Assembly (NCBI GenBank): GCA_964472855.1
Contig: CAYYMJ010000003.1
Location: forward strand, 26,933-90,932
Origin: an uncultured Rhodobacterales bacterium
GTDB lineage: Bacteria; Pseudomonadota; Alphaproteobacteria; Rhodobacterales; Rhodobacteraceae
Direction: 5' to 3'
DNA: 64,000 bases
Part shown: piece by piece, positions 1 through 56,133 of the stretch
Layout: every line of letters starts with the position of its first letter
Position numbering within the stretch: position 1 is the stretch's first letter
Notes under the pieces: model-generated
What the model saw: only the letters and a program-made list of their open reading frames with translations
What the model was told of the DNA's origin: nothing
The model's database searches: none
Made by a program: the position numbers and the translations under genes

Positions 1-1624
1 ACTCGGACGCGACCAGGCATACCTTGCGACGGTTGGCCTCGTCCCCACGCCGGCGGAAATGGCCGCGCACCCAGCTTTCCAGGTTATCTTCGGTATCCAG
101 GCTGCGGGCCGCGACAAGGCGCGACCAACCGTTATCAAGCCGGGCCCTTGTTTCCGCCGCTTCGCCGAAATCGACGACCCGACCCGCCTGCATCACGATC
201 AGCCGGTCGCACATTTCCATCAAGCCGCGGTTCTGGCTGACGATCACCACCGACCGGCCCAGCCGTACCTCGTGGCGCAGCCGCTCTTGCAGCGCGGTGA
301 TCTGGCGGTCATGCAGACCGTCTTCGGGCCGGTCGAGCAAATAGACATCCGGGGCCAACAGCAGCGCACGTGCCAGGGCAAGAGATTTTTTCTGCATGTC
401 TGGCAGCAGGTCGGCCGGTCCGTCGCAGATCCGGTCGACCAGGTCGGCCGAAAACACCAGCTTTTCCAGAATTTGCCGCCCACGAGCCTTTGCCGTGCTG
501 TCGTGGAAACAGGCGAGATTGTCTTCGCCGGATGCGGGAAGCACAAGGGGAGCGGGCGGGAGATAGACCGCCGTGACGCGGCGCGGCCCGCGGCCGCGCT
601 GCCACAGATCGTCGCCATGAACCGACACGTGGCCCCTGACCTCGGCCATGGCAATCGAGAATGGATCGGCCAACACCTGCAGCAGCATGGATTTTCCGGC
701 GCCGCTGTCCCCCACCAGGCCGGTGATCGACCCTGCCGGAACGGCGAATGACACGTCGGACAACAACTTTTGCGCGCCGACCGACAGATCCAGCGCCGAC
801 ACCAGCAACCCGCCGGCTTCAATCTCGTCCGGCTCGTCCAGTTCATGGCGCAAAACGCGGGCCGGCGCGTCTGCCCCGGCGCTGGCTGACCGCATCGTGC
901 GCAGCGCTTTCAGCGCGCTGCCGGCGGCCCAATAGGTGATCAGGCCAATGGCCGCCACCGCCGCCGGTTCCAGCACGCCGGTCGCCGAAAGCCAGCTGCC
1001 CGCCGCCAAAGACGCGGCCACTGACAACCATGTCAGCGAAGTCTGAACCGCCCCCGCGAGCGTGTGTTCGTCAAAATCGGTCCGGGCAAGCCTCAGACCT
1101 TCAAGATCGCGCCCGGCAAGCACTGGCACCGCCTCGGCCGGCCGAAAATCCCACGCGGATTCGCGGCCACCAAACCGGCTCAGCAGCCAGAAGACCGCCA
1201 CCCCAAGCAGACCGGCGACCAGAACGGGAAACAGCAACAGCGGATGCACCAGCCCGAAGGCCAAGGCAACGATCAGGCCCATCCATCCCTGCACGCGGAC
1301 AAAGGTCTTGCGCCGCTCGCTGCGGAACCCTGCCATGGCCCGCGCATGGGCATAATCCAGGCCGATGGCGCCAAGGATCGGCACCGCGACGATGGCCAGA
1401 AGCACCGGCGCAAGCCCCAGCTCGCCCTGTTCGGCCACCAGCGACTGGAAGAACAGCGCCGACAGGGCCGCGGCCAGCCAGCAAAGCCCGATCAGCACCG
1501 CAAAGATGCCGCTGATTGCGCGCGCCCAACCGGGCGAACGCCGATCGACGCCCTCAAGGTTCAGTTGTCCCGCCTCTTCCATCGGAAAGAGATTGCCGGG
1601 TGTTTCGGAATCGCCGTGTGCCAT
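1..1624 (-). CDS. Membrane-anchored ABC-type ATP-binding protein with degenerate NBD and extra C-terminal domain (3' end runs off the window)
   Basis: Absent from the ORF track because no stop lies in the window. My translation of the minus strand from ATG 1624-1622 stays open to base 1 (541 codons). About 250 aa hydrophobic N-terminus (roughly 6 TM helices). Walker A is GDSGAGKS. The signature is LPDMQ instead of LSGGQ, the Walker B region is VYLLDRPEDG (Arg where the catalytic Glu sits), and the switch His is replaced (VVIVSQNRG). The frame then continues SRLVAARSLDTEDNLESWVRGHFRRRGDEANRRKVCLVASE, resembling the N-terminus of RsbW/SpoIIAB-type kinases. Confidence 0.75.
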   Translation of the reverse strand, partial: MAHGDSETPGNLFPMEEAGQLNLEGVDRRSPGWARAISGIFAVLIGLCWLAAALSALFFQSLVAEQGELGLAPVLLAIVAVPILGAIGLDYAHARAMAGFRSERRKTFVRVQGWMGLIVALAFGLVHPLLLFPVLVAGLLGVAVFWLLSRFGGRESAWDFRPAEAVPVLAGRDLEGLRLARTDFDEHTLAGAVQTSLTWLSVAASLAAGSWLSATGVLEPAAVAAIGLITYWAAGSALKALRTMRSASAGADAPARVLRHELDEPDEIEAGGLLVSALDLSVGAQKLLSDVSFAVPAGSITGLVGDSGAGKSMLLQVLADPFSIAMAEVRGHVSVHGDDLWQRGRGPRRVTAVYLPPAPLVLPASGEDNLACFHDSTAKARGRQILEKLVFSADLVDRICDGPADLLPDMQKKSLALARALLLAPDVYLLDRPEDGLHDRQITALQERLRHEVRLGRSVVIVSQNRGLMEMCDRLIVMQAGRVVDFGEAAETRARLDNGWSRLVAARSLDTEDNLESWVRGHFRRRGDEANRRKVCLVASE

Positions 1625-1775: not shown

Positions 1776-3464
1776 ATGACGAAGAAAACCGGCTCTTCTC
1801 GCAGGGGCGCCCAATTTGGACTGGCCGCCCTGTGCGGCTCCGCCGTCCTGCTTGCGGGCGCCACCTGGAGCGTCGGTTCAGTGGCCCGGACAATGCTGCT
1901 GAAGCAAGAGGAAGAGATTACGCCAATCATCGCCGGCGGCGACCTTGACCGTATTCCCGCCCTGATGCGCGGCAATCTGGCCACGATGACCACGTCGATG
2001 GTGGACGAGACCGAAAGGCGTGTAAAGCCGCCCCGCATGTGCGAGATGCCCGACAATTATTTTGAACGGCTGGATCGCGGGCTCGACCAGCGCGTCGGCT
2101 ATACCCGCCGCAACGAATATGTCCGCCCCTATCGCGACCGGCGCGGCTTTCTGAACGAGCGCGAGCTTCGCGCCGCCCGCGTTGCCTGGCACTATTTCGA
2201 ACAATTCACTCAGGAAACCACCGGCCTTGCCAATTCGGTTGGCAATTATCCGTCGACCACCATGTGGGACACCGCCAGCTATGTTGCCGGCGCTGTGGCC
2301 GCTTACGAGTTGTGCCTGATCGAAAAGCCCGAATTCGACCAGCGAATTCTGCAGCTTTTGACAACGATCAAGGGGCTGGAACTGTTCCGAAAGGAATTGC
2401 CCAACAAGGTTTATCACACGAAGACCGGCGAAAAGGTCGACTATACCAACAAGCCCGGTGAAATCGGGTTTTCGGCGCTGGATATCGGGCGGTTTCTGGT
2501 CTGGATGCGAATTCTGAAGAATCGCTATCCGCATTTCAGCAACACAATCGATTCGGTACTGTTGAAATGGGATTTCAGTAATGTCGTTGACGACGAGGGC
2601 CTGCTTCACGGCTCTTATGTCGATCGGGAAACCGGCAATACCGTCTACGCCCAGGAAGGGCGGCTGGGTTACGAGGAATATGCCGCCAAGGGTTTTGCCT
2701 TGTGGGGGTTTCAGCCCATTCTGGCGCACCGGGCGGAACCGTTTCTGACCGCGTCGATCTTTGGTGTATCCGTGCCCTATGACGGGCGCGATCCGCGCAT
2801 TTTCCATTCACAGAATTACGTGGTGACGGAAAGCTACCTTCAGGACGGGATGGAGCTGGGCTTCAACCTGCCCCAGGACGACTCCAGCCCCGATTGGCTG
2901 CATTCCGATGGCTGGCGCGCCGAATTCGCCGACCGCATCTACGAGGTTCAGGAAAACCGCTGGCGGCAAACCGGCTATATGACGGCGCGGTCGGAACATA
3001 ACGTCAAGGGGCCGCCGTATTTCACATATGACACGATCTTTTCCGACGGCTATCCCTGGAACACGGTTACGCCGCGCGGGGATTATGTGCCCGACCATGC
3101 CGCGGTTGCCGCCAAGGCGGCGCTCGGGCTGTGGGCTCTTTGGGACACCGACTATACCGATGTCCTGTATGAAGCGATCATCGAGCTTTATAATCCCGAA
3201 AAGGGCATGTTCGAGGGGCTGTATGAACGCGGCCAGGGTCGTGTCGAGATCTTCACCGCCAATAACAACGGCATCATCCTGACCGCGCTGCTGCACAAGG
3301 TGCAGGGCACGATCCTGACGCCCTACACCGGCGAAACCGAGGTCTGGTATACCGCGTTCCGCGATCAGGACCTGCGCCGACGGCGCAACTATCCGGATCC
3401 GCCGCAGGAAGCCGACTGGCTGCCTGCCCTGCGACACTCTCTTCCTATCGAGGTGGACTACTGA
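1776..3464 (+). CDS. DUF3131-like protein (putative glycan-active enzyme) with N-terminal membrane anchor or signal
   Basis: 562-aa ORF with hydrophobic N-terminus (FGLAALCGSAVLLAGATW). Shares blocks with the paralogue at 5040-6359: GNYPSTTMWDTASYV/AGYPAATLWDQGSYV, LPNKVYHT/LPNKVYNT, IGFSALDIGRFL/IGWSAIDIARLL, YAQEGRLGYEEYAAK/YVQEGRIGYEQYAAR. The DUF3131 name is from memory, not a search. Confidence 0.8.
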   Translation: MTKKTGSSRRGAQFGLAALCGSAVLLAGATWSVGSVARTMLLKQEEEITPIIAGGDLDRIPALMRGNLATMTTSMVDETERRVKPPRMCEMPDNYFERLDRGLDQRVGYTRRNEYVRPYRDRRGFLNERELRAARVAWHYFEQFTQETTGLANSVGNYPSTTMWDTASYVAGAVAAYELCLIEKPEFDQRILQLLTTIKGLELFRKELPNKVYHTKTGEKVDYTNKPGEIGFSALDIGRFLVWMRILKNRYPHFSNTIDSVLLKWDFSNVVDDEGLLHGSYVDRETGNTVYAQEGRLGYEEYAAKGFALWGFQPILAHRAEPFLTASIFGVSVPYDGRDPRIFHSQNYVVTESYLQDGMELGFNLPQDDSSPDWLHSDGWRAEFADRIYEVQENRWRQTGYMTARSEHNVKGPPYFTYDTIFSDGYPWNTVTPRGDYVPDHAAVAAKAALGLWALWDTDYTDVLYEAIIELYNPEKGMFEGLYERGQGRVEIFTANNNGIILTALLHKVQGTILTPYTGETEVWYTAFRDQDLRRRRNYPDPPQEADWLPALRHSLPIEVDY

Positions 3465-4969
3465 TGAAATCTCTCAGCTTTTTTGCGCTGGCGCTCTTGC
3501 CTCTGGCCACGTCCGCTGCCGCCCAGGTCGCACAGTCCGCCAGTGGCGCCGATGCCTTCACGTCCGAGAATGCGATCCTTGACACATCCGTGCCCTTCGC
3601 AATTGGCGCCAGCGAGGCGCGGCAAGACCTTCGCGGGTCGTTCGGCTGGCCCACGTTTCAAGAGGGTCTGGTCGAAGGCGTCTATTTCCGTTTCGATCCC
3701 GACGGTTACGCCCGCTTCGCGCCCACGCCCAGGCTGGACAGCGACGTCTTCGAGGTCATCTGCCGTCCGCGCACCTTCAGCTGCATTGCCCGCAAGGGCG
3801 CGCTGACGCTCTTGCTGAATACGCGCGGCCAGCTTGAGATCAACCTTGAGGGCGTGGTCCCGGGCGACACGCTTTACGTCATCGAAGGGGTCACCGAGCT
3901 TCAGATCCCCGACCGGATCCTGCAGCCGCTGGACTGGCATCTGGAAGCGCTGCTGTCCGCAGGGGGCGAACTTGTGGCCCGCCGCGGCCCTGACAATGAA
4001 ATCACCCGCGTGTCTCTGATCGGGTTTCCGGCCGTGACCGCCTATCTGCGCTGGATCACGGCCCGGCAGGACTATACCGTGTTGCCGCGCGGCTGGCCGG
4101 TGCCGAATGCCGGTGGCGGCGCGTCGGGCGCCCTGACCCAGGCGACAGGATGGCCCAACACGTCCGGCCCCGCACAGATTGTCGGCGCTCAGGAGTTTCA
4201 GGCGCAGGCCGCGGAACCGGTCGCCGAAGATTCCGAAGTGGAACTGCTTCGCGGCGATATCGCCCGGCTCAAGCAACTGCTGGAGGGCCGCGGCAGCGTC
4301 GAAACCGGCGCCACCGAGGCGGTGACAATCGCAGGGCCCGCCGCCGCAAGCCAGCCCGCGCCGTCTGCGGATCAGCTGAGCAATCTTGAAACGGCAACGG
4401 CCGCGATATTGCGCGAGTTGGAAGACCTGCGCGGCAAGATACTCGTCATCGAAGACTCGGCCCGCGCCGAGGCTGCGCCCGACCCGGCCGCCTTGCCGGT
4501 CGAGGCGGCCGAGGCCGCCCCGGAAGCCACCGATGCGGTCCAAGAAGCCCCTACGATTTCGCTGGCCGACAAGTTGGACTTTCTCATCACCGAGATCGGC
4601 ATCGATCCGCAATTGGCGGTTGTTCTTGTAGAAATCGGACATCCCGGTGAGACCGAGGGTTACCAGCTTCCCGTCGCCCTGAACGAGGCGTCGACGCTGA
4701 GTTCGGACGAGATTCTGTCGCAGCTTCTGTCGGGCCTGAACGCGGTCGGGCAACTGCCGCTGGCGCAGGCGGAAACGTCGGACGTTGCGGCCGAGCAAGA
4801 GCCGCAGATGATCGCGGAGACATCCGAGCCGGAGGAGGCACCGGTCGCCGAGGCAACCGACGCCGCCGAGGCCGAAGAAACGCCACAGGTTCCCGAATTG
4901 CAGCCCGGCGAATATGTTCTTATTGCCGACTATTTCGCGTCAGTCTTCGGTGACAAGTCCGAAGAGTGA
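3464..4969 (+). CDS. Secreted protein of unknown function with acidic Ala/Glu/Pro-rich C-terminal half
   Basis: 501-aa ORF. Its start ATG overlaps the upstream stop (TGATG at 3462-3466). Clear signal peptide MKSLSFFALALLPLATSAAAQ. C-terminal third is low-complexity and acidic (EAAEAAPEATDAVQEAP, EPEEAPVAEATDAAEAEE). I recognise no family. Confidence 0.7.
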   Translation: MKSLSFFALALLPLATSAAAQVAQSASGADAFTSENAILDTSVPFAIGASEARQDLRGSFGWPTFQEGLVEGVYFRFDPDGYARFAPTPRLDSDVFEVICRPRTFSCIARKGALTLLLNTRGQLEINLEGVVPGDTLYVIEGVTELQIPDRILQPLDWHLEALLSAGGELVARRGPDNEITRVSLIGFPAVTAYLRWITARQDYTVLPRGWPVPNAGGGASGALTQATGWPNTSGPAQIVGAQEFQAQAAEPVAEDSEVELLRGDIARLKQLLEGRGSVETGATEAVTIAGPAAASQPAPSADQLSNLETATAAILRELEDLRGKILVIEDSARAEAAPDPAALPVEAAEAAPEATDAVQEAPTISLADKLDFLITEIGIDPQLAVVLVEIGHPGETEGYQLPVALNEASTLSSDEILSQLLSGLNAVGQLPLAQAETSDVAAEQEPQMIAETSEPEEAPVAEATDAAEAEETPQVPELQPGEYVLIADYFASVFGDKSEE

Positions 4970-8133: not shown

Positions 8134-8868
8134 TTATCCGCCGCCGTTGGCGCGAAGAAAATCATCGACAAAGGCATCGGCCACGCCGACCACAAGCTCG
8201 CGTTCGGAAAGCCACGCCTCGGCGGTCGGGCGGCTGGAATAGCTCCAGACGCCAACCGACAGTTTCGTGCTGAGATCACGCGACAACAGCGCCGTCTGTG
8301 TCAGGCTGGCGAAGACCGAATAGGTATAATCACAGCTGCTGTCGGGGTCGGTGAAGGAAAAGAACACGCCAAGCTTGGGTTGCCCCGGCAATCGCGCGGC
8401 TTCGGCCGGGTCAAGCACCAAGAGACCGGCCGCGCGCAGCCTGGTTTCGAATTCTTCCTGAAGCTCGGTCCCGAAGCTCGAACTGTATCCCGGCGGCGGA
8501 CGCATGTTCCGCAAATCGACGCCCACACCGATCAGACCGCGCAGGGCATCCAGCTTGTCGGACAGAAACTGACGCTCGGTGTCATATTCGGGGGCGCCAG
8601 GCTCCAGATTGTTCTGGCAAATGCGCGGGGCATCCGGGTTCTGCCCCTCGTCGATCGCGCCATGATCGGCAGGCCCGAACATGCGATACAGCCATTCGTC
8701 GTTTTCCGGCGTGAAAAGACGGCTGCGATACGCGCTTTCGCAGGCAGCGCCGTCACAGTCTTCGTCGGTCTGGCGATGCTCCCACAGCAGCCAGAACCGG
8801 TCTTCCGGCGCGGCCTGAGCCGATGCTGCAACCGCCAGGAACAGCCCCAGGATTGCGGCGCGTTTCAT
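8134..8868 (-). CDS. Periplasmic or secreted protein of unknown function
   Basis: 244-aa ORF with signal peptide MKRAAILGLFLAVAASAQA. Lies 9 nt downstream of the GT2 stop (GT2 ends 8124, this stop is at 8134) and overlaps the next upstream gene by 4 nt. No family recognised. Confidence 0.7.
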   Translation of the reverse strand: MKRAAILGLFLAVAASAQAAPEDRFWLLWEHRQTDEDCDGAACESAYRSRLFTPENDEWLYRMFGPADHGAIDEGQNPDAPRICQNNLEPGAPEYDTERQFLSDKLDALRGLIGVGVDLRNMRPPPGYSSSFGTELQEEFETRLRAAGLLVLDPAEAARLPGQPKLGVFFSFTDPDSSCDYTYSVFASLTQTALLSRDLSTKLSVGVWSYSSRPTAEAWLSERELVVGVADAFVDDFLRANGGG

Positions 8869-10343
8869 GCCCGCCGCGCCTGCCGCCGCGCGCTTTGCAG
8901 TGGACCGACATTGTCCAGCGGTCCGGCCGGAACCACGCCGGCATGGGCGAAGGCATAGTCAAATGCCCAATTCGGGCCGGTGATCTTGCGATCGACCAGC
9001 GCGCCGCGCCCGACCACCGTGTCGGGCAGGATGATGCTGTTACGCACGACCGAGCCGCGGGCAGCCACCGCGCCACTGCCCAGCACCGACGGACCAATCA
9101 TCTGGGCGCCGCGTTCCACCCGGGCGCCACGGCCCACGTAGCAAGGGCCATCGACGGTCGCCAGCCGCGAGAATTCGGCGCCGTCTTCGACCCAGATGCC
9201 AGGGTGGATCTGCCGGGCGTCGGGCAAGAGGATGCCGTCGACGCCGCGCAGGCCCTTTTGCAGAACGCTCGCATAGTCACGCCCGCACCCCACGTCATGC
9301 CAGCTGAAGTCGGGCGCCCAGCATTGCACGTGGCCCCCATGTTCAAGCAGTCGCGGCAAGAGATCGGTCGCGATGTCCTGGCCCGCACCCTCGGGCAGAT
9401 AGGAAACCGCCTCGGGGCTGAACACGTAGATCCCCGTGTTGGCCAGTCTTGACCGCGCCTGCGTCTGGTCGGGCTTTTCCTGAAAAGACGTGACCCGGCC
9501 TTCGCCGTCACGGCAAATGATGCCGTATTTCGAGACCTGGTCTTCGGGCACGGTCTGGGCGGCGATGGTGGCAATGGCCCCGGTGTCGCGGTGGTGGGCG
9601 ATCAGTTGGGCGATGTCGAGGTCAACGACCGCGTCGCCGCAAAGCACCAGAAACTCGCGATCGAACAGGGCATGGTCACGGTCGAGCTTTTGCAGGGTCG
9701 AGGCCGACCCAAGCGGCCGTGCACACCAGCCATCCGGGCCGTTATGACCTTCGCGCAGAAACAGCAACGACCGGGTGTCGGACGGTCCCTGGCGGAAGTG
9801 GTCGATGATCTGCTGGCCCAGGTGGCCGGGGTTCAGCGCAAAGTCACGAATGCCAAAAGTTTCGAGGTGACGGACAATGCGCTCGACCACCGGGCGCCCG
9901 AGAATGTCGAGCATGGGCTTGGGATAGATCTCGGACAGGGGCGCAATGCGCGAGCCACGCCCGGCGCAAAGAACCACGGCGCGCACGCCGCGCAAACGAA
10001 ACCGGCGAATGGCGATATCCGACAGGGCCGCGTCGACCGACGGGTAGATCGGCAGGCCCGGGCGCAGGCTGACGCGGTCGACCAGTTGCAGAACCTGCTG
10101 GCCCAGCGCACAGAAGCCGAAACAGATGGATTTGTTGATGGCCATCAGTTCGACCAGGCCGGCAAGCCCGCCGTAGGTCACGCGCCTGACGCGGCTGAAA
10201 TCGATCAGGATCGCGCGCTTGCCCTGCAGGCTCAGCCGGGCGCTGATTTCGGTCAGCGGACCGAAAAGATCGGCCTCGAGCTTGCGGGCCCGCAATTTCA
10301 GCACCGCGATATTGTCGTTGCGGGGTTCGACATCAACCAACAT
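8865..10343 (-). CDS. STAS-domain / sugar-1-phosphate nucleotidyltransferase fusion protein
   Basis: N-terminal ~110 aa look STAS-like (NIAVLKLRARKLEADLFGPLTEISARL...ILIDFSRVRRVTYGGLAGLVEL). This is followed by the nucleotidyltransferase motif VVLCAGRGSRIAPLS..YPKPML and a C-terminal hexapeptide-repeat-like region (GARVERGAQMIGPSVLGSGAVAARGSVVRNSIILPDTVVGRGALV). The start is either ATG 10343 (abuts the upstream stop at 10345) or the track start 10382. Confidence 0.85.
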   Translation of the reverse strand: MLVDVEPRNDNIAVLKLRARKLEADLFGPLTEISARLSLQGKRAILIDFSRVRRVTYGGLAGLVELMAINKSICFGFCALGQQVLQLVDRVSLRPGLPIYPSVDAALSDIAIRRFRLRGVRAVVLCAGRGSRIAPLSEIYPKPMLDILGRPVVERIVRHLETFGIRDFALNPGHLGQQIIDHFRQGPSDTRSLLFLREGHNGPDGWCARPLGSASTLQKLDRDHALFDREFLVLCGDAVVDLDIAQLIAHHRDTGAIATIAAQTVPEDQVSKYGIICRDGEGRVTSFQEKPDQTQARSRLANTGIYVFSPEAVSYLPEGAGQDIATDLLPRLLEHGGHVQCWAPDFSWHDVGCGRDYASVLQKGLRGVDGILLPDARQIHPGIWVEDGAEFSRLATVDGPCYVGRGARVERGAQMIGPSVLGSGAVAARGSVVRNSIILPDTVVGRGALVDRKITGPNWAFDYAFAHAGVVPAGPLDNVGPLQSARRQARRA

Positions 10344-10344
10344 T

Positions 10345-11478
10345 TCAGGTGATCTCCGCTGTCTGGGTGTTGCGACGGCCAAGGCGCGGCAGGGGGCCCA
10401 GCCCGATGGTCCAGGCGATCAGGGGAATTCGGCCCATGATGGCCACCAGGATCGACGTTGTCGTAAGCGTCCAGACGATCTTGATCAGCACTTGCAGGGT
10501 CGGCGTCAGCGCGACGTTGCTTAGCGCGATTTCCGCCAGGTCGAGGAAGATCGGGTGACACAGGTAGATGCCGAATGAATAGGGTGCCAGCCGGGACAGG
10601 ATGGGCGGCCAGCGGCGATGCGCCAGCGACATGCAGCCGGCAAACAGCGCCACCGGCATCAGGAAATCGGCCCAGTAACCGGCGGTATAGTTGAAGGGCC
10701 ACGCACCGGATTCGATGGTCTTGTAGCTGGCCACCAGTTTGAGCGTGAACAGCGCCAGGCCGATGTAAAGCGCCGGCAGAAACCACTCTCGCCCGTCGGT
10801 GGCGCGCAAGCGATCCCAAAGGCCCAGCGCCGCGGCGGCGGCAAAGCCATAGCCCGCATAGGTCAGAACCTTGACGGCCCGAACCGCGAATTCCAGCCAG
10901 GCGGCGTCGTAAAATGTGCCATAAAGAAAGCCGTCGAGCTCGCGCTTGACCAGCAGGCAGACGATCACGGCCATCCCGAATTGCGGATACTTCCGGGCCA
11001 CGCGGAACAGCGGATACATCAGCACCAGAAGAAACAGCGTCGGAAGAAAGTGCATGTGGAATTTCACGCTGCCCAGCGTGGCATATCCCAACAGGGCGAC
11101 CGGGTCCGTCAGGTCGGCCAGCCGCGCGTCAAGATACCCAAAATAGTCTGCCTTTATAAGGGTGTAAAAGACGTAAAACACCGTCCAGAATGCGAAGGGC
11201 ACCAGCAGCCTGCGCACCTGAACAGCGATGGTCTGGCGATAGGTGGCGGGGCGCCGGTCCAGCGACATCAGCAGCAGGAAGACCGAGATCATCAGAAACA
11301 GCTCGGTCCGGGCGGTATAAAGGACCGCCCGCAGCAGGATCGGGCCGGTTCGCTCGGCCAGAGAATAGTCGACCCATGGCAAACCGCTGGAATCCGCCGT
11401 CGAATGCAGCCCGACCATTGACAGCCCCGCCGCAAGGCGCAGGGCATCGAGCCAAACCAGTCTTTCTTTTTCAGCCAT
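10345..11478 (-). CDS. Acyltransferase family 3 (OpgC/OafA-like) integral membrane protein
   Basis: Start chosen at ATG 11478 (MAEKERLVWLDALRLAAGLSMVGLH, typical acyltransferase-3 N-terminus) rather than the track start 11685. About 10 hydrophobic helices across 377 aa. Confidence 0.8.
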   Translation of the reverse strand: MAEKERLVWLDALRLAAGLSMVGLHSTADSSGLPWVDYSLAERTGPILLRAVLYTARTELFLMISVFLLLMSLDRRPATYRQTIAVQVRRLLVPFAFWTVFYVFYTLIKADYFGYLDARLADLTDPVALLGYATLGSVKFHMHFLPTLFLLVLMYPLFRVARKYPQFGMAVIVCLLVKRELDGFLYGTFYDAAWLEFAVRAVKVLTYAGYGFAAAAALGLWDRLRATDGREWFLPALYIGLALFTLKLVASYKTIESGAWPFNYTAGYWADFLMPVALFAGCMSLAHRRWPPILSRLAPYSFGIYLCHPIFLDLAEIALSNVALTPTLQVLIKIVWTLTTTSILVAIMGRIPLIAWTIGLGPLPRLGRRNTQTAEIT

Positions 11479-11621
11479 CAGGGTTCCCGTTCCGTTTTCC
11501 GGCAACCTGTCAGCCGACTCCCAAAAATTGGTAAACCGCGCCCCAACTTTTTCACCCGGCCGACCACAACGATTCCTTAAGCCTTCCCGGTCATGACTTG
11601 GCCCGAAAGGGATGCCCGCGA

Positions 11622-12149
11622 ATGAGCAGAATTGCCTTGATCCTGTTGCTGGTGCTTGCACCCGACAGCCTTGCCGCCCAGGCACTTTCGGCCAATGACT
11701 GCGCCGAAATCCGCGCCGCCTATGGCATAATCCCCCAAGGGTGCCCGGCTGTCGCCGACGTGGCCGCCCCGGTGCGCGCGTTGTCAGAACCGGCCCCGTC
11801 GGATCGCGAAAGCCATATCTTCTTTCCGCACGGCGGCAGCCGGGTCGACCCGGCCGGCGCGGCCCAGATCGAACGGTTGGCCGCGGTTCTGGAATCGCCT
11901 CCTGTGGCGGGCCTGTGCATCCGCCTGACCGGGCACTCTGACGTCTCCGGCGCGGCGGCGGTCAACGTGCGGATCTCGCGGCGCCGGGCCGAGGCCGTGG
12001 CGACCGCGCTGCGGCCGCTGATGGCCGACAATACCCGCATAACCGAGGTGCGGGGCCTGGGCGAAGCCGAACCGCTGCCCTCGATCGACCCGACCAGTTC
12101 CTGGCAACGCCGCGTGGCAATCGAACTGGGGCGCTGTCCGCCGGTCTGA
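11622..12149 (+). CDS. OmpA-like (peptidoglycan-associating) domain protein with signal peptide
   Basis: Start moved to ATG 11622 (MSRIALILLLVLAPDSLAAQA). OmpA C-terminal motif LTGHSDVSGAAAVNVRISRRRAEAVATAL. Divergent from the glycan operon. Confidence 0.75.
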   Translation: MSRIALILLLVLAPDSLAAQALSANDCAEIRAAYGIIPQGCPAVADVAAPVRALSEPAPSDRESHIFFPHGGSRVDPAGAAQIERLAAVLESPPVAGLCIRLTGHSDVSGAAAVNVRISRRRAEAVATALRPLMADNTRITEVRGLGEAEPLPSIDPTSSWQRRVAIELGRCPPV

Positions 12150-15091: not shown

Positions 15092-16072
15092 TTACTGGCC
15101 CATCATCAGCGACATGACATCGCCCACGGTGGTGTCGCCGATCGCTTCGTCCTTGGCGGCGGCGATGGCCGGGGCCAGAGCCGCGTTCCAGCGGGCCTTT
15201 TCTTCGTCGCTGAGGTCGATGATCTCGACGCCGCCTTCGGCCGCGATCTGCAGACCACGGGCCGCGGCCCGGTCATAGAATGTGCCGCCGGCCATGGACA
15301 ACGACGCATCCGACGCGGCGCTGACCCAGCCTTGCTGTTCTTCGCTCAGGCTGTTCCAGACATCGTTGTTCATCAGCAGCACGAACGCCGACCCCGAGCC
15401 CGGGAACCATGTGGTCAGGTAATTGGCGGGCTCGTGCAGCTTGAACGAACCGATGGCCGACGGCCCGATGGCGATGGCGTCGATCACACCATTGGCTAGG
15501 TTCTGGTTGATCACGTTGACCGGCTGGGCCACGGCCGAGGCACCCAGCGCCTCGACAAAGGGCACGTCCTGCTTCGAGGTTACCCGCACCTTCATGCCGG
15601 CCAGATCCTCGAGCGTGCGCACAGGCGTGTCGCGCGTCAGCAGGATCGGCGGAGCATTGGCCCAGATCGCCAGCAGCTTGGCGTTGTATTCGCCTTCCAG
15701 CAGGTCGCGGGCCCGCAACAGCGCCTCGGTACAGGCGACCGAACTGGTGCAGACGTCCGGCAGCGTGACGACATTGGTCAGCGGGAACACGTCACCGGTA
15801 TAGCCGGGCAGCGTGAAAACGATGTCGGCGACGCCGTCCAGCAGAATCGCATACTGTTTCGGCGGAACCGAATTCAGCGCCCCGCCCGGAAACTGGCGAA
15901 CCGTCATTTCGCCGCCCGACACTTCGGCCAGCTTGTCCGCGAACGGTGTGAACACGGCGGCGTTCATCGGGTGTTTCGGTCCCATGAAATAGGCCAACGA
16001 CAGTTCCGACGCGCCGGCCGCGCCCCCGAACGCCAAGGCGGCGCCGACGGCAAGCCCCAGGAATTTCCGCAT
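15092..16072 (-). CDS. TRAP transporter substrate-binding protein (DctP family)
   Basis: Start moved from 16366 to ATG 16072 (MRKFLGLAVGAALAFGGAAGASE signal peptide). DctP-type sequence LSLAYFMGPKHPMN...QFPGGALNSVPPKQY. Confidence 0.9.
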   Translation of the reverse strand: MRKFLGLAVGAALAFGGAAGASELSLAYFMGPKHPMNAAVFTPFADKLAEVSGGEMTVRQFPGGALNSVPPKQYAILLDGVADIVFTLPGYTGDVFPLTNVVTLPDVCTSSVACTEALLRARDLLEGEYNAKLLAIWANAPPILLTRDTPVRTLEDLAGMKVRVTSKQDVPFVEALGASAVAQPVNVINQNLANGVIDAIAIGPSAIGSFKLHEPANYLTTWFPGSGSAFVLLMNNDVWNSLSEEQQGWVSAASDASLSMAGGTFYDRAAARGLQIAAEGGVEIIDLSDEEKARWNAALAPAIAAAKDEAIGDTTVGDVMSLMMGQ

Positions 16073-16322
16073 GGTCGATTCTCCCTTTTGTCCTGACCGT
16101 TGACACTTGCCATCAGGCGGACACGGTCGATTGCAGGCCAAGGTTACGCGGGAAAATGCGGTCCACAAAGCAAATTGGCGTGCGCCGTTGCGTAGACAAC
16201 CAGCCGTTTGCGCACGCGCACCGGCGCAGATGCGGGGCCGGTCGCGCCCGGCAGCCCCGGTTTCAGGCCCCGACGCCAGCGGCCACCACGCGCGCAAAAG
16301 GGTGGCCGGAACGCCGGCCGGA

Positions 16323-17267
16323 TCAGCCGCGCGCCGCCCGCTGCCGCGCCACGTCGCGCGCAACAAGGTCGCGGTAAAGTTCGCGCAATTTCAGCGTCAC
16401 GGGCCCCGCCCCCTGCCCGTTGCCGATGGTCCGGCCGTCGATTTCGGCCACCGGGGTCTGGGCGCCGAAGGTGCCGGTCAGAAAGGCTTCGTCGGCGCCA
16501 TAGGCTTCGTAGAGCGAGAAATTCTTCTCGCGCACCGCAATGGCGTTTTCCCGGCAAAGGTCGATGATCTTCTGCCGGGTCACACCGTTCATGCAATAGT
16601 CGCCGGTCGAGGTCCAAACCTCGCCACGGCGCACGATGAAGAAGTTGCAGGCGTTGGTGGTGTTCACAAAGCCATGCGGGTCCAGCATCAGCGCCTCGTC
16701 GGCGCCGGCCTGCTCGGCCTGCAGGCAGGCGATGACGCAGTTCAGCTTGGAATGGCTGTTGAATTTCGGATCCTGGCTGGTGGGCAACCCGCGCACCTGC
16801 GGCACCGACGCCAGCCGGATACCGCTGTTCAGAAGATGCGCCGCCGGCCTTGAATGCTCGACAATCGCCACGACGGTCGGCCCGAACCGGCTGAGCGCCG
16901 GGTGCTGAAACGGCTTGGCCTTGCGCCCGCGCGTGACCATCAGGCGGCAGTGGGCGTCGGTCGTGATGCCGTTGGCCCGGGCGGTGCGGTCAAGAATGGC
17001 GCGCAGCCCGTCCCGGCCATGCCCGATGTCCAGCGCCACCGCCTTGCAGCTGTCAAACAGCCGGTCCATGTGGTCGTCGAAAAAGGCCCACTGGCCATCG
17101 TAAAGGCGCAGCCCTTCCCACATGCCGTCGCCCAGCAGGAAGCCGCTGTCATAAACCGACACCACCGCCTGCGCCTTGGGAACGATGTCACCGTTCACAT
17201 AGATCACGATGTCGTCGTTGCGCGGGTCGGTGTCCGCGTCATGGGTGCTGGGGGCTTGATCGATCAT
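16323..17267 (-). CDS. Class IV aminotransferase (branched-chain / D-amino-acid aminotransferase fold)
   Basis: 314-aa ORF with VSVYDSGFLLGDGMWEGLRLYDG...FFDDHMDRL, typical of fold-type IV PLP enzymes. Confidence 0.85.
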   Translation of the reverse strand: MIDQAPSTHDADTDPRNDDIVIYVNGDIVPKAQAVVSVYDSGFLLGDGMWEGLRLYDGQWAFFDDHMDRLFDSCKAVALDIGHGRDGLRAILDRTARANGITTDAHCRLMVTRGRKAKPFQHPALSRFGPTVVAIVEHSRPAAHLLNSGIRLASVPQVRGLPTSQDPKFNSHSKLNCVIACLQAEQAGADEALMLDPHGFVNTTNACNFFIVRRGEVWTSTGDYCMNGVTRQKIIDLCRENAIAVREKNFSLYEAYGADEAFLTGTFGAQTPVAEIDGRTIGNGQGAGPVTLKLRELYRDLVARDVARQRAARG

Positions 17268-56057: not shown

Positions 56058-56133
56058 TGGTGCCCCCAGAGAGACTCGAACTCCCGACCCCCTGATTACA
56101 AATCAGGTGCTCTACCAGCTGAGCTATAGGGGC
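56058..56133 (-). tRNA. tRNA-Thr (anticodon UGU)
   Basis: The reverse complement GCCCCTATAGCTCAGCTGGTAGAGCACCTGATTTGTAATCAGGGGGTCGGGAGTTCGAGTCTCTCTGGGGGCACCA folds as a cloverleaf: 7-bp acceptor, D arm GCTC/GAGC, anticodon stem CCTGA/TCAGG with loop TTTGTAA, T arm GGGAG/CTCTC with TTCGAGT, encoded CCA. Confidence 0.95.

Follow-up and report, generated by a model that had tools for sequence, protein, structure and literature searches.

A conserved ABC-like protein with a degenerate nucleotide-binding domain, encoded beside a putative glycan gene cluster in an uncultured Rhodobacterales bacterium

The window analyzed in this study, a stretch of 64,000 nucleotides from an uncultured Rhodobacterales bacterium (assembly GCA_964472855.1, contig CAYYMJ010000003.1, positions 26,933 to 90,932 of the forward strand), begins within the gene of a membrane protein related to ATP-binding cassette (ABC) proteins, which lies next to a set of putative glycan genes (Table 1). 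This ABC-like gene is on the minus strand, has its start ATG at 1624 with a second in-frame ATG at 1633, and is free of stop codons as far as the left edge of the window; 541-544 of its codons lie inside, and its 3′ end lies beyond the edge. A database search retrieved a full-length counterpart of 650 amino acids (aa), P0001, which comes from a 14 kb metagenome contig and is approximately 99.6% identical to the window protein. At window positions 917-922 (minus strand), Tyr-Trp is encoded at residues 235-236 in the sixth transmembrane (TM) helix, where P0001 has Phe-Gly; this discrepancy stems either from the strains or from the assemblies. No promoter or terminator emerged when the region between the divergent genes (1500-1900) was scanned.

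Hydropathy and an AlphaFold2 model of the full-length protein (mean predicted local distance difference test score, pLDDT, 81.8) give a layout consisting of a disordered N-terminus, six TM helices (residues 32-246), a nucleotide-binding domain (NBD), and an alpha/beta C-terminal domain (501-640). The original prediction, made from the letters of the window, had described an ABC domain on a compact six-helix anchor followed by an extra C-terminal domain. Hydropathy and the model agree on the anchor, and the additional domain is real, with the window edge cutting it after about 40 residues.

Table 1. Features of the ABC-like gene and of the neighboring glycan cluster, in window coordinates.
Feature	Position	Strand	Basis
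Degenerate ABC-like protein gene, 5′ 83% (residues 1-541 of 650)	1..1624	minus	Translation, near-identical P0001, Pfam ABC_tran
Compact six-helix transmembrane domain, residues 32-246	887..1531	minus	Hydropathy and AlphaFold2
Loop motif W-D-F-x-P-x-E-A-x-x-L-x-G-R-D-x-x-G between TM4 and TM5, residues 158-176	1097..1153	minus	
NBD, residues ~256-500 (coordinates for 272-500)	125..811	minus	Pfam, phmmer, AlphaFold2 model
Walker A GDSGAGKS, intact	689..712	minus	phmmer alignment and family alignment
Q-loop position LPPAP, Gln to Pro	548..562	minus	YLPPAP aligned to VQQEP of solved exporters
Degenerate signature LPDMQ where LSGGQ is expected	392..406	minus	phmmer alignment
Walker B and D-loop VYLLDRPEDG, Asp kept, catalytic Glu to Arg	317..346	minus	phmmer alignment
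Switch/H-loop position SQNR, His to Gln	227..238	minus	Aligned to AHRL
Predicted C-terminal SpoIIAB/RsbW-like (GHKL-fold) domain, first ~40 residues (501-541 of 501-640)	2..124	minus	
DUF3131 protein, 562 aa, N-terminal membrane anchor	1776..3464	plus, divergent	Pfam E 1e-117; same position in L001, L059-L062
Secreted protein, 501 aa, signal peptide, acidic Pro/Ala/Glu-rich C-terminal half	3464..4969	plus	
Second DUF3131 protein, 466 aa	5040..6440	minus	Pfam E 6e-127; conserved in cluster
Family 2 (GT2) cellulose-synthase-like glycosyltransferase, 579 aa	6385..8124	minus	Pfam Glycos_transf_2, Glyco_tranf_2_3, weak Cellulose_synt
Small open reading frame, 244 aa, between GT2 and nucleotidyltransferase	8134..8868	minus	No family match
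STAS and sugar-phosphate nucleotidyltransferase, left-handed beta-helix tail	8865..10382	minus	Pfam NTP_transferase E 4e-34
Acyl_transf_3 membrane acyltransferase	10345..11685	minus	Pfam E 1e-27; conserved in cluster

The Pfam ABC_tran profile (PF00005) matched residues 291-436 with 55.9 bits (E 9e-15, cut-off 25), a real match that is weak for an ABC ATPase, and phmmer aligned the protein to 483 ABC chains in the PDB. This above-threshold match, a Walker A sequence of the form GxxGxGK[ST] and a Walker B of the form hhhhD (VYLLD) place it in the ABC ATPase superfamily. Motif positions were fixed by phmmer alignment to solved exporters (yeast Ste6, P-glycoproteins, and plant ABCB1), and the DNA coordinates of the motifs were read by hand from the window sequence. 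An intact Walker A, a signature reading LPDMQ, an Arg after the Walker B Asp, and SQNR at the switch-His position had all been proposed before, and each was confirmed: the Walker A by profile and pairwise alignment, LPDMQ by its position opposite LSGGQ, the Arg by the alignment of LLDRPEDGLH to LLDEATSALD, and SQNR by its alignment to AHRL. Besides upholding these three losses, the alignments revealed two more, the Gln of the Q-loop and the Asp of the D-loop, where SALD has become DGLH. The window protein thus lacks the catalytic Glu, the LSGGQ signature, the switch His, the Q-loop Gln, and the D-loop Asp of a catalytically competent ABC ATPase. The A-loop aromatic residue was considered as a further lost motif and rejected because several canonical relatives are also non-aromatic in this column, which is mostly Val in the family.

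An exhaustive profile search of 1.84 billion representative sequences recovered approximately 60 full-length members of the family at 50%-identity clustering, and no premature stop was found in these representatives. The family is small and occurs in marine bacteria, with the taxonomic breadth observed here being a lower bound; Actibacterium pelagium and strain KMM 3653 are among its culturable carriers. A profile scan of genome contigs identified at least two true orthologous loci (L002 and L003) among the 57 matches listed, the rest being generic ABC proteins. Whether the substitutions are conserved or specific to one strain was a question that the original prediction had referred to orthologues. 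The same pattern recurs in 17 orthologues at 39-49% identity and throughout an alignment of 64 family members with seven canonical relatives from type I secretion systems (T1SSs), which answers the question in favor of selection.

In this alignment, the residues that anchor the nucleotide are conserved in the family as they are in the canonical relatives: G305, G310, and S/T312 of the Walker A and D431 of the Walker B are present in all 64 members, and K311 in 63. Positions that serve hydrolysis show the opposite pattern. None of the 64 members has Glu at position 432 (R48, Q6, M3, L2, T2, and others) or Gln at the Q-loop position 357, His is found at the switch position 464 in about one member (E27, D18, Q6, and others), and the D-loop Asp at position 438 is kept in 10, whereas all seven canonical relatives carry the expected residue at each of these four sites. 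The signature, which reads LSAGQ in the canonical relatives, is variable in the family, with S31/P27 at position 408, Gly in 9 of 64 at position 410, and Q26/E17/D10 at position 411.

Other residues have become newly conserved at the same sites. Family members share R432 (48/64), P433 (64/64), and E434 (61/64, where the canonical relatives have Asn in 7/7), together with N465 (41/64) and R466 (61/64) in the switch region, and these define a new motif set of D-R-P-E and [ST]-x-N-R. R432 is paired with Glu or Asp at position 464 in approximately 36 of 48 cases. A charge-swapped version of the catalytic Glu-His dyad was considered for this pair and not adopted, the covariation being suggestive and not strict. 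Mean pairwise identity is highest in the NBD (0.40), followed by the C-terminal domain (0.39) and the transmembrane domain (TMD; 0.27). Because orthologues share the same substitutions, the NBD is, judging from the alignment, under purifying selection and a re-purposed domain rather than part of a decaying copy.

The membrane domain is reduced as well. The six helices of the AlphaFold2 model (residues 32-65, 69-96, 101-126, 128-151, 190-214, and 222-246) are 24-34 residues long, and the loop between TM2 and TM3, at about four residues, is nearly deleted. No match to ABC_membrane (PF00664) was found, and the long helices and coupling loops of the type IV exporter fold are absent. A cytoplasmic loop between TM4 and TM5 carries a conserved motif (Table 1), with W158, E164, G171, R172, D173, and G176 invariant, and the model places two short helices at residues 162-181 of the loop region. 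This loop may be the sole element that couples the membrane domain to the NBD.

Several lines of evidence connect the family to type I secretion. Among NCBIfam models, the T1SS permease/ATPase families LssB and PrtD scored best, both with about 75 bits and far under their cut-offs. On the PrtD model (TIGR01842), residues 202-497, which comprise TM5-6 and the NBD, aligned to PrtD 248-542. With 75 bits against a cut-off of 510 bits, the ABC-like protein falls outside TIGR01842 and is, as far as sequence comparison indicates, a descendant of the PrtD subfamily and not a member of it. More distant matches of about 690 aa (P0188, P0189, P0190, P0197, P0204, P0213, and P0255) aligned through the C-terminal domain. 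These relatives score 360-516 bits on TIGR01842, with P0255 alone (516 bits) over the cut-off, and they carry canonical GESGSGKT, Q-loop, LSAGQ, LDEPN..D, and HR motifs. The gene of P0190 (L063:8001-10079) lies in an operon together with the genes of an RTX protein and an AprE-type adaptor. P0174, P0175, and P0186 are also degenerate: the variable residue of D-x-P-E is R in the first, T in the second, and H in the third, their signatures have degenerated in other ways, and by their sequences they look like intermediates between the canonical T1SS ABC proteins and the core family.

A Foldseek search with the whole model returned IrtAB, PrtD, TM287/288, PCAT1, and HlyB as the best matches, with template modeling scores (TM-scores) of 0.31-0.34; these low values are attributable to membrane helices that are much shorter than those of type IV exporters and to the near absence of the TM2-TM3 loop. 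Compared with the ~690-aa subgroup of PrtD/AprD-type T1SS exporters (TIGR01842; PDB 5l22), the protein has homologous TM5-6, NBD, and C-terminal domains, and in both groups an AprE/HlyD-type adaptor gene lies directly downstream. The PrtD-type relatives, however, have canonical motifs, long type IV helices, and adjoining RTX substrates, whereas the family studied here has lost all the catalytic motifs, has a TMD that is shorter by about 80 residues, and occurs in a glycan cluster. No RTX protein or substrate with a C-terminal secretion signal was found beside the target gene, its neighbors being glycan enzymes and proteins with Sec signals. From these comparisons, the family is clearly a degenerate offshoot of PrtD-type T1SS ABC exporters.

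The C-terminal domain gave no Pfam match, and a profile search of the PDB with it was empty. Modeled alone with AlphaFold2 (residues 497-650), it reached a pLDDT of 88.3 and a predicted TM-score (pTM) of 0.82. The top 17 Foldseek matches of this model in the PDB are all partner-switching anti-sigma Ser kinases, namely SpoIIAB, Mycobacterium tuberculosis UsfX, and RsbW (E 4e-7 to 5e-4, TM-score 0.5-0.8), and the catalytic domains of histidine kinases rank after them. The predicted structure is therefore that of a GHKL/Bergerat fold of the SpoIIAB/RsbW type. An hhalign comparison with SpoIIAB was not significant, though the G1 region was aligned. When the sequences are compared by eye, the Mg-binding Asn of the N-box has been replaced by hydrophobic residues (F/L/V; ASELLAFSC against VSEAVTNAI of SpoIIAB), the G1 box keeps its Asp alone (invariant D575), and the glycines of the G2 box are missing. 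Given the loss of the N-box Asn and the G2 glycines and the retention of only the G1 Asp, the domain is probably a pseudokinase that acts as a binding module. The catalytically normal ~690-aa PrtD-type exporters also carry this C-terminal domain, which was modeled in the ABC-like protein.

In all six loci that extend far enough (L001, L003, and L059-L062), the next gene downstream of the ABC-like gene encodes an HlyD_3-type adaptor of 420-460 aa with an N-terminal anchor. This adaptor gene, which is translationally coupled to the ABC-like gene, overlaps the stop codon of the latter in four of these loci and lies no more than about 45 bp from it in the other two. A profile built from the six adaptors matched the AprE-type adaptor of a canonical T1SS operon over its whole length with 47 bits, which indicates joint inheritance of the ABC-like gene and the adaptor.

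On the other side of the ABC-like gene, the glycan cluster was compared between the window and five other loci (L001 and L059-L062). Two paralogous DUF3131 genes flank the gene of a 501-aa secreted protein, and all three are conserved in the cluster. The secreted protein, which has no Pfam or NCBIfam match, has orthologues in all five other loci at 41-60% identity, and a literature search on DUF3131 returned nothing functional. The GT2 gene, which encodes an enzyme of processive type, is present in all loci compared. By contrast with these conserved genes, the 244-aa open reading frame has an orthologue in L001 alone (42% identity). An OmpA-like gene usually stands at the far end of the cluster in the other loci. 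The candidate cargo proteins visible in the cluster bear Sec signal peptides or membrane anchors. No second ABC ATPase was found in the conserved gene set, and a dimer of the ABC-like protein would consequently have two dead composite sites.

The nucleotidyltransferase of the cluster carries a STAS domain in its N-terminal ~115 residues. Pfam STAS matched all five nucleotidyltransferase orthologues, and a profile of the five STAS sequences found the anti-sigma antagonists TM1081 (1.9e-6) and TM1442 in the PDB, as well as RsfB, SpoIIAA, and MlaB. The fusion occurs in five of six loci and would be an unusual way of regulating or localizing a precursor-forming enzyme. SpoIIAB/RsbW-type domains have STAS proteins as their physiological ligands, and the STAS protein MlaB binds the NBD of an ABC protein. 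Partner-switching modules control polysaccharide loci such as Vibrio Syp and that of the Anabaena heterocyst (PMC10120452; PMC4517449; bioRxiv 10.64898/2026.04.08.717354). By analogy with these cases, a phosphorylation-independent contact between the ABC-like protein and the STAS-nucleotidyltransferase is an attractive possibility.

ABC exporters in which one of the two sites is degenerate are familiar, and in these, to our knowledge, the work is always done by the other site. In heterodimers of this kind, the degenerate site binds ATP without hydrolyzing it (PMC12038006). TM287/288, TmrAB, BmrCD, Rv1273c/72c, CFTR, and TAP resemble the ABC-like protein in that the catalytic Glu, switch His, and signature are substituted and the Walker A is retained. 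They differ in having a second, consensus site that works, whereas the cluster studied here has one ABC gene and both sites of a homodimer would be dead; an Arg at the catalytic-Glu position and the loss of the Q-loop Gln also go beyond the usual degenerate-site pattern. Literature searches aimed at membrane proteins of pseudo-ABC or fully degenerate type yielded single-degenerate-site heterodimers only, and a conserved, fully degenerate ABC variant of T1SS type is apparently undescribed in the literature searched.

Similar gene combinations are known from synthase-dependent polysaccharide pathways. BgsA (GT2), BgsB (a membrane fusion protein), and TolC make a mixed-linkage beta-glucan with a processive GT2 enzyme and an HlyD-like adaptor and without an ABC motor (PMC13438883). 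Both BgsA-BgsB-TolC and the Alg8-Alg44 system of alginate combine a synthase with a periplasmic adaptor, as the GT2 enzyme and the adaptor do in the cluster described here. Unlike this cluster, they have no ABC-like subunit and are regulated by cyclic di-GMP (c-di-GMP) through the BgsA C-terminus and the PilZ domain of Alg44. The pseudo-ABC protein with its RsbW-like domain may hold a cytoplasmic regulatory position equivalent to that of these c-di-GMP modules. With SpoIIAB, RsbW, and UsfX and their STAS antagonists, and with SypE-SypA of Vibrio fischeri, the protein shares the fold of its C-terminal domain, and a STAS domain is encoded in its locus. Those kinases are free-standing, however, whereas the domain described here is fused to a membrane ABC protein, has no significant sequence similarity to them and apparently degenerate ATP boxes, and the phosphorylatable Ser of the STAS domain in its cluster is not conserved. 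MlaF-MlaB is a precedent for a STAS protein as direct binder and stabilizer of an ABC NBD. MlaF, however, is soluble and catalytically active and serves as the NBD in a lipid transporter of importer type, and neither protein has homology to those described here beyond the generic ABC and STAS folds.

We consider it somewhat more probable than not (roughly 0.55) that the ABC-like protein is a nucleotide-binding, non-hydrolyzing scaffold or regulatory subunit that serves, with its adaptor, in a synthase-dependent glycan secretion machine. Its ancestor would have been a PrtD-type T1SS ABC exporter that already had a C-terminal domain of SpoIIAB/RsbW fold. In the lineage of the ABC-like protein, the TMD would have been trimmed to six short helices, and the residues for hydrolysis and for the ATP sandwich (Q-loop Gln, LSGGQ, catalytic Glu, D-loop Asp, and switch His) would have been replaced, while the nucleotide anchors (Walker A Lys-Ser/Thr and Walker B Asp) persisted and were joined by the new set D-R-P-E and [ST]-x-N-R. 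The resulting pseudo-ABC half-transporter would bind nucleotide without turning it over and, together with the HlyD/AprE-type periplasmic adaptor, might form a static or nucleotide-gated scaffold between the inner membrane and the periplasm for a putative polysaccharide. The polymer would be made and extruded by the neighboring GT2 synthase, as in BgsA-BgsB-TolC or Alg8-Alg44, without an ABC motor. On the cytoplasmic side, the NBD and the RsbW-like domain could offer a platform for docking or regulation, with the STAS domain of the cluster's nucleotidyltransferase as a plausible partner.

That the protein would bind ATP without normal hydrolysis or sandwich chemistry had been predicted from the window alone, and for five lost motifs beside invariant anchors it is still the most reasonable reading of the sequence. 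The accompanying suggestion of a sensor or regulator rather than a transporter stands in part. The SpoIIAB/RsbW-like fold of the C-terminal domain and the STAS-fused nucleotidyltransferase make a regulatory role possible, but the suggestion is too simple in view of the PrtD descent, the adaptor, and the glycan cluster, and a non-catalytic subunit in a secretion-type assembly that spans the envelope is a more fitting description of the protein.

Several observations weigh against the interpretation as a non-hydrolyzing subunit of a glycan secretion machine. Hydrolysis of a slow or unconventional kind could in principle be sustained by a relocated acid, either the invariant E434 or the Glu/Asp of the H-loop position. 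No TolC-like outer-membrane gene is visible in the cluster, and the adaptor is known from the orthologous loci, that of the window organism being expected beyond the window edge. The likeness of the C-terminal domain to SpoIIAB is at the level of the fold, and no match of its sequence to the family (Pfam HATPase_c_2) was found. An RsbW-like domain is also found in the RTX-secreting T1SS ABC protein of locus L063, with no STAS gene nearby, which suggests that the ancestral partner of the domain was not a STAS protein. Finally, the position of the phosphorylated Ser in the STAS domains is variable (G, S, A, P, G), and classical switching based on phosphorylation is therefore unlikely.

Three other explanations were weighed against this interpretation. 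An ABC exporter gene that has lost its function and is decaying, with motif losses specific to one strain, would be in line with the low Pfam score (55.9 bits) and the many motifs lost when the single sequence is considered, but it is refuted, to the point of near certainty, by the roughly 60 representatives (50%-identity clusters) that are all full length and share both the substitutions and the newly fixed residues, by the NBD being the most conserved domain, and by the retained synteny. It is also unlikely that the protein is still an ATP-driven exporter of a glycan or a protein, with E434 or the H-loop acid as a relocated catalytic base and R432 acting like an arginine finger. The Walker A, the Walker B Asp, and a new invariant acid two residues downstream are strictly conserved, the exporter-like architecture and adaptor partner are retained, and the frequent pairing of R432 with Glu/Asp at position 464 suggests a structured, active-site-like network. 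Against such an exporter, five independent elements of hydrolysis and sandwich formation are absent together, the signature, which contacts the gamma-phosphate in trans, varies within the family in a way not expected of a working site, next to nothing is left of the intracellular coupling loops (TM2-TM3 loop of about four residues), and the candidate cargo of the cluster has Sec signal peptides or membrane anchors.

A membrane-anchored regulator of partner-switching or anti-sigma type, which would control precursor supply or transcription through the STAS-nucleotidyltransferase or a sigma factor, appears similarly improbable as the primary role. In such a regulator, the RsbW-like domain, the NBD (as in MlaF-MlaB), or both would sequester or activate a partner, while the membrane part and the adaptor sense the status of the envelope or the polymer. 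The exclusive ranking of SpoIIAB, RsbW, and UsfX at the top of the structural matches of the C-terminal domain argues for it, as do the conserved STAS-nucleotidyltransferase fusion in the same cluster, the match of the STAS profile to the NBD-binding MlaB, and the control of Syp and heterocyst polysaccharides by partner switching. The presence of the C-terminal domain in canonical RTX-type T1SS ABC proteins without STAS neighbors argues against it, and so do the non-conserved phospho-Ser of the STAS domain and the apparent absence (by eye) of the kinase N-box Asn and the G1/G2 glycines, with the G1 Asp alone kept. Elements of the non-hydrolyzing subunit and of the regulator may also be joined, in a combination that we offer tentatively and consider rather doubtful: the ABC-adaptor module would have turned into a non-hydrolyzing scaffold whose NBD and pseudokinase capture the STAS domain and gate the supply of sugar nucleotide at the GT2 synthase. 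It is just as speculative that this arrangement would amount to a phosphorylation-independent partner-switching circuit in a fossil T1SS, coupling energy or nucleotide status to polysaccharide export.

If the interpretation as a non-hydrolyzing subunit is true, the family would represent a naturally occurring pseudo-enzyme among membrane ABC proteins, a clean system in which to study the role of nucleotide binding by itself in the ABC fold, and an example of a T1SS ABC-adaptor pair recruited to a synthase-dependent glycan pathway. It would also draw attention to a previously unremarked domain of predicted SpoIIAB/RsbW fold at the C-terminus of a T1SS ABC subgroup, catalytically normal members included, and to an uncharacterized glycan cluster of marine Rhodobacterales with a GT2 enzyme, two DUF3131 proteins, a STAS-nucleotidyltransferase, and an acyltransferase.

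The window further contains, close to the glycan cluster but not within it, a gene for a DctP-type TRAP transporter solute-binding protein (15092-16366, minus strand) that is probably unrelated to the cluster. A tRNA-Thr gene (TGT; 56058-56133, minus strand) is the sole match to an RNA family in the window.

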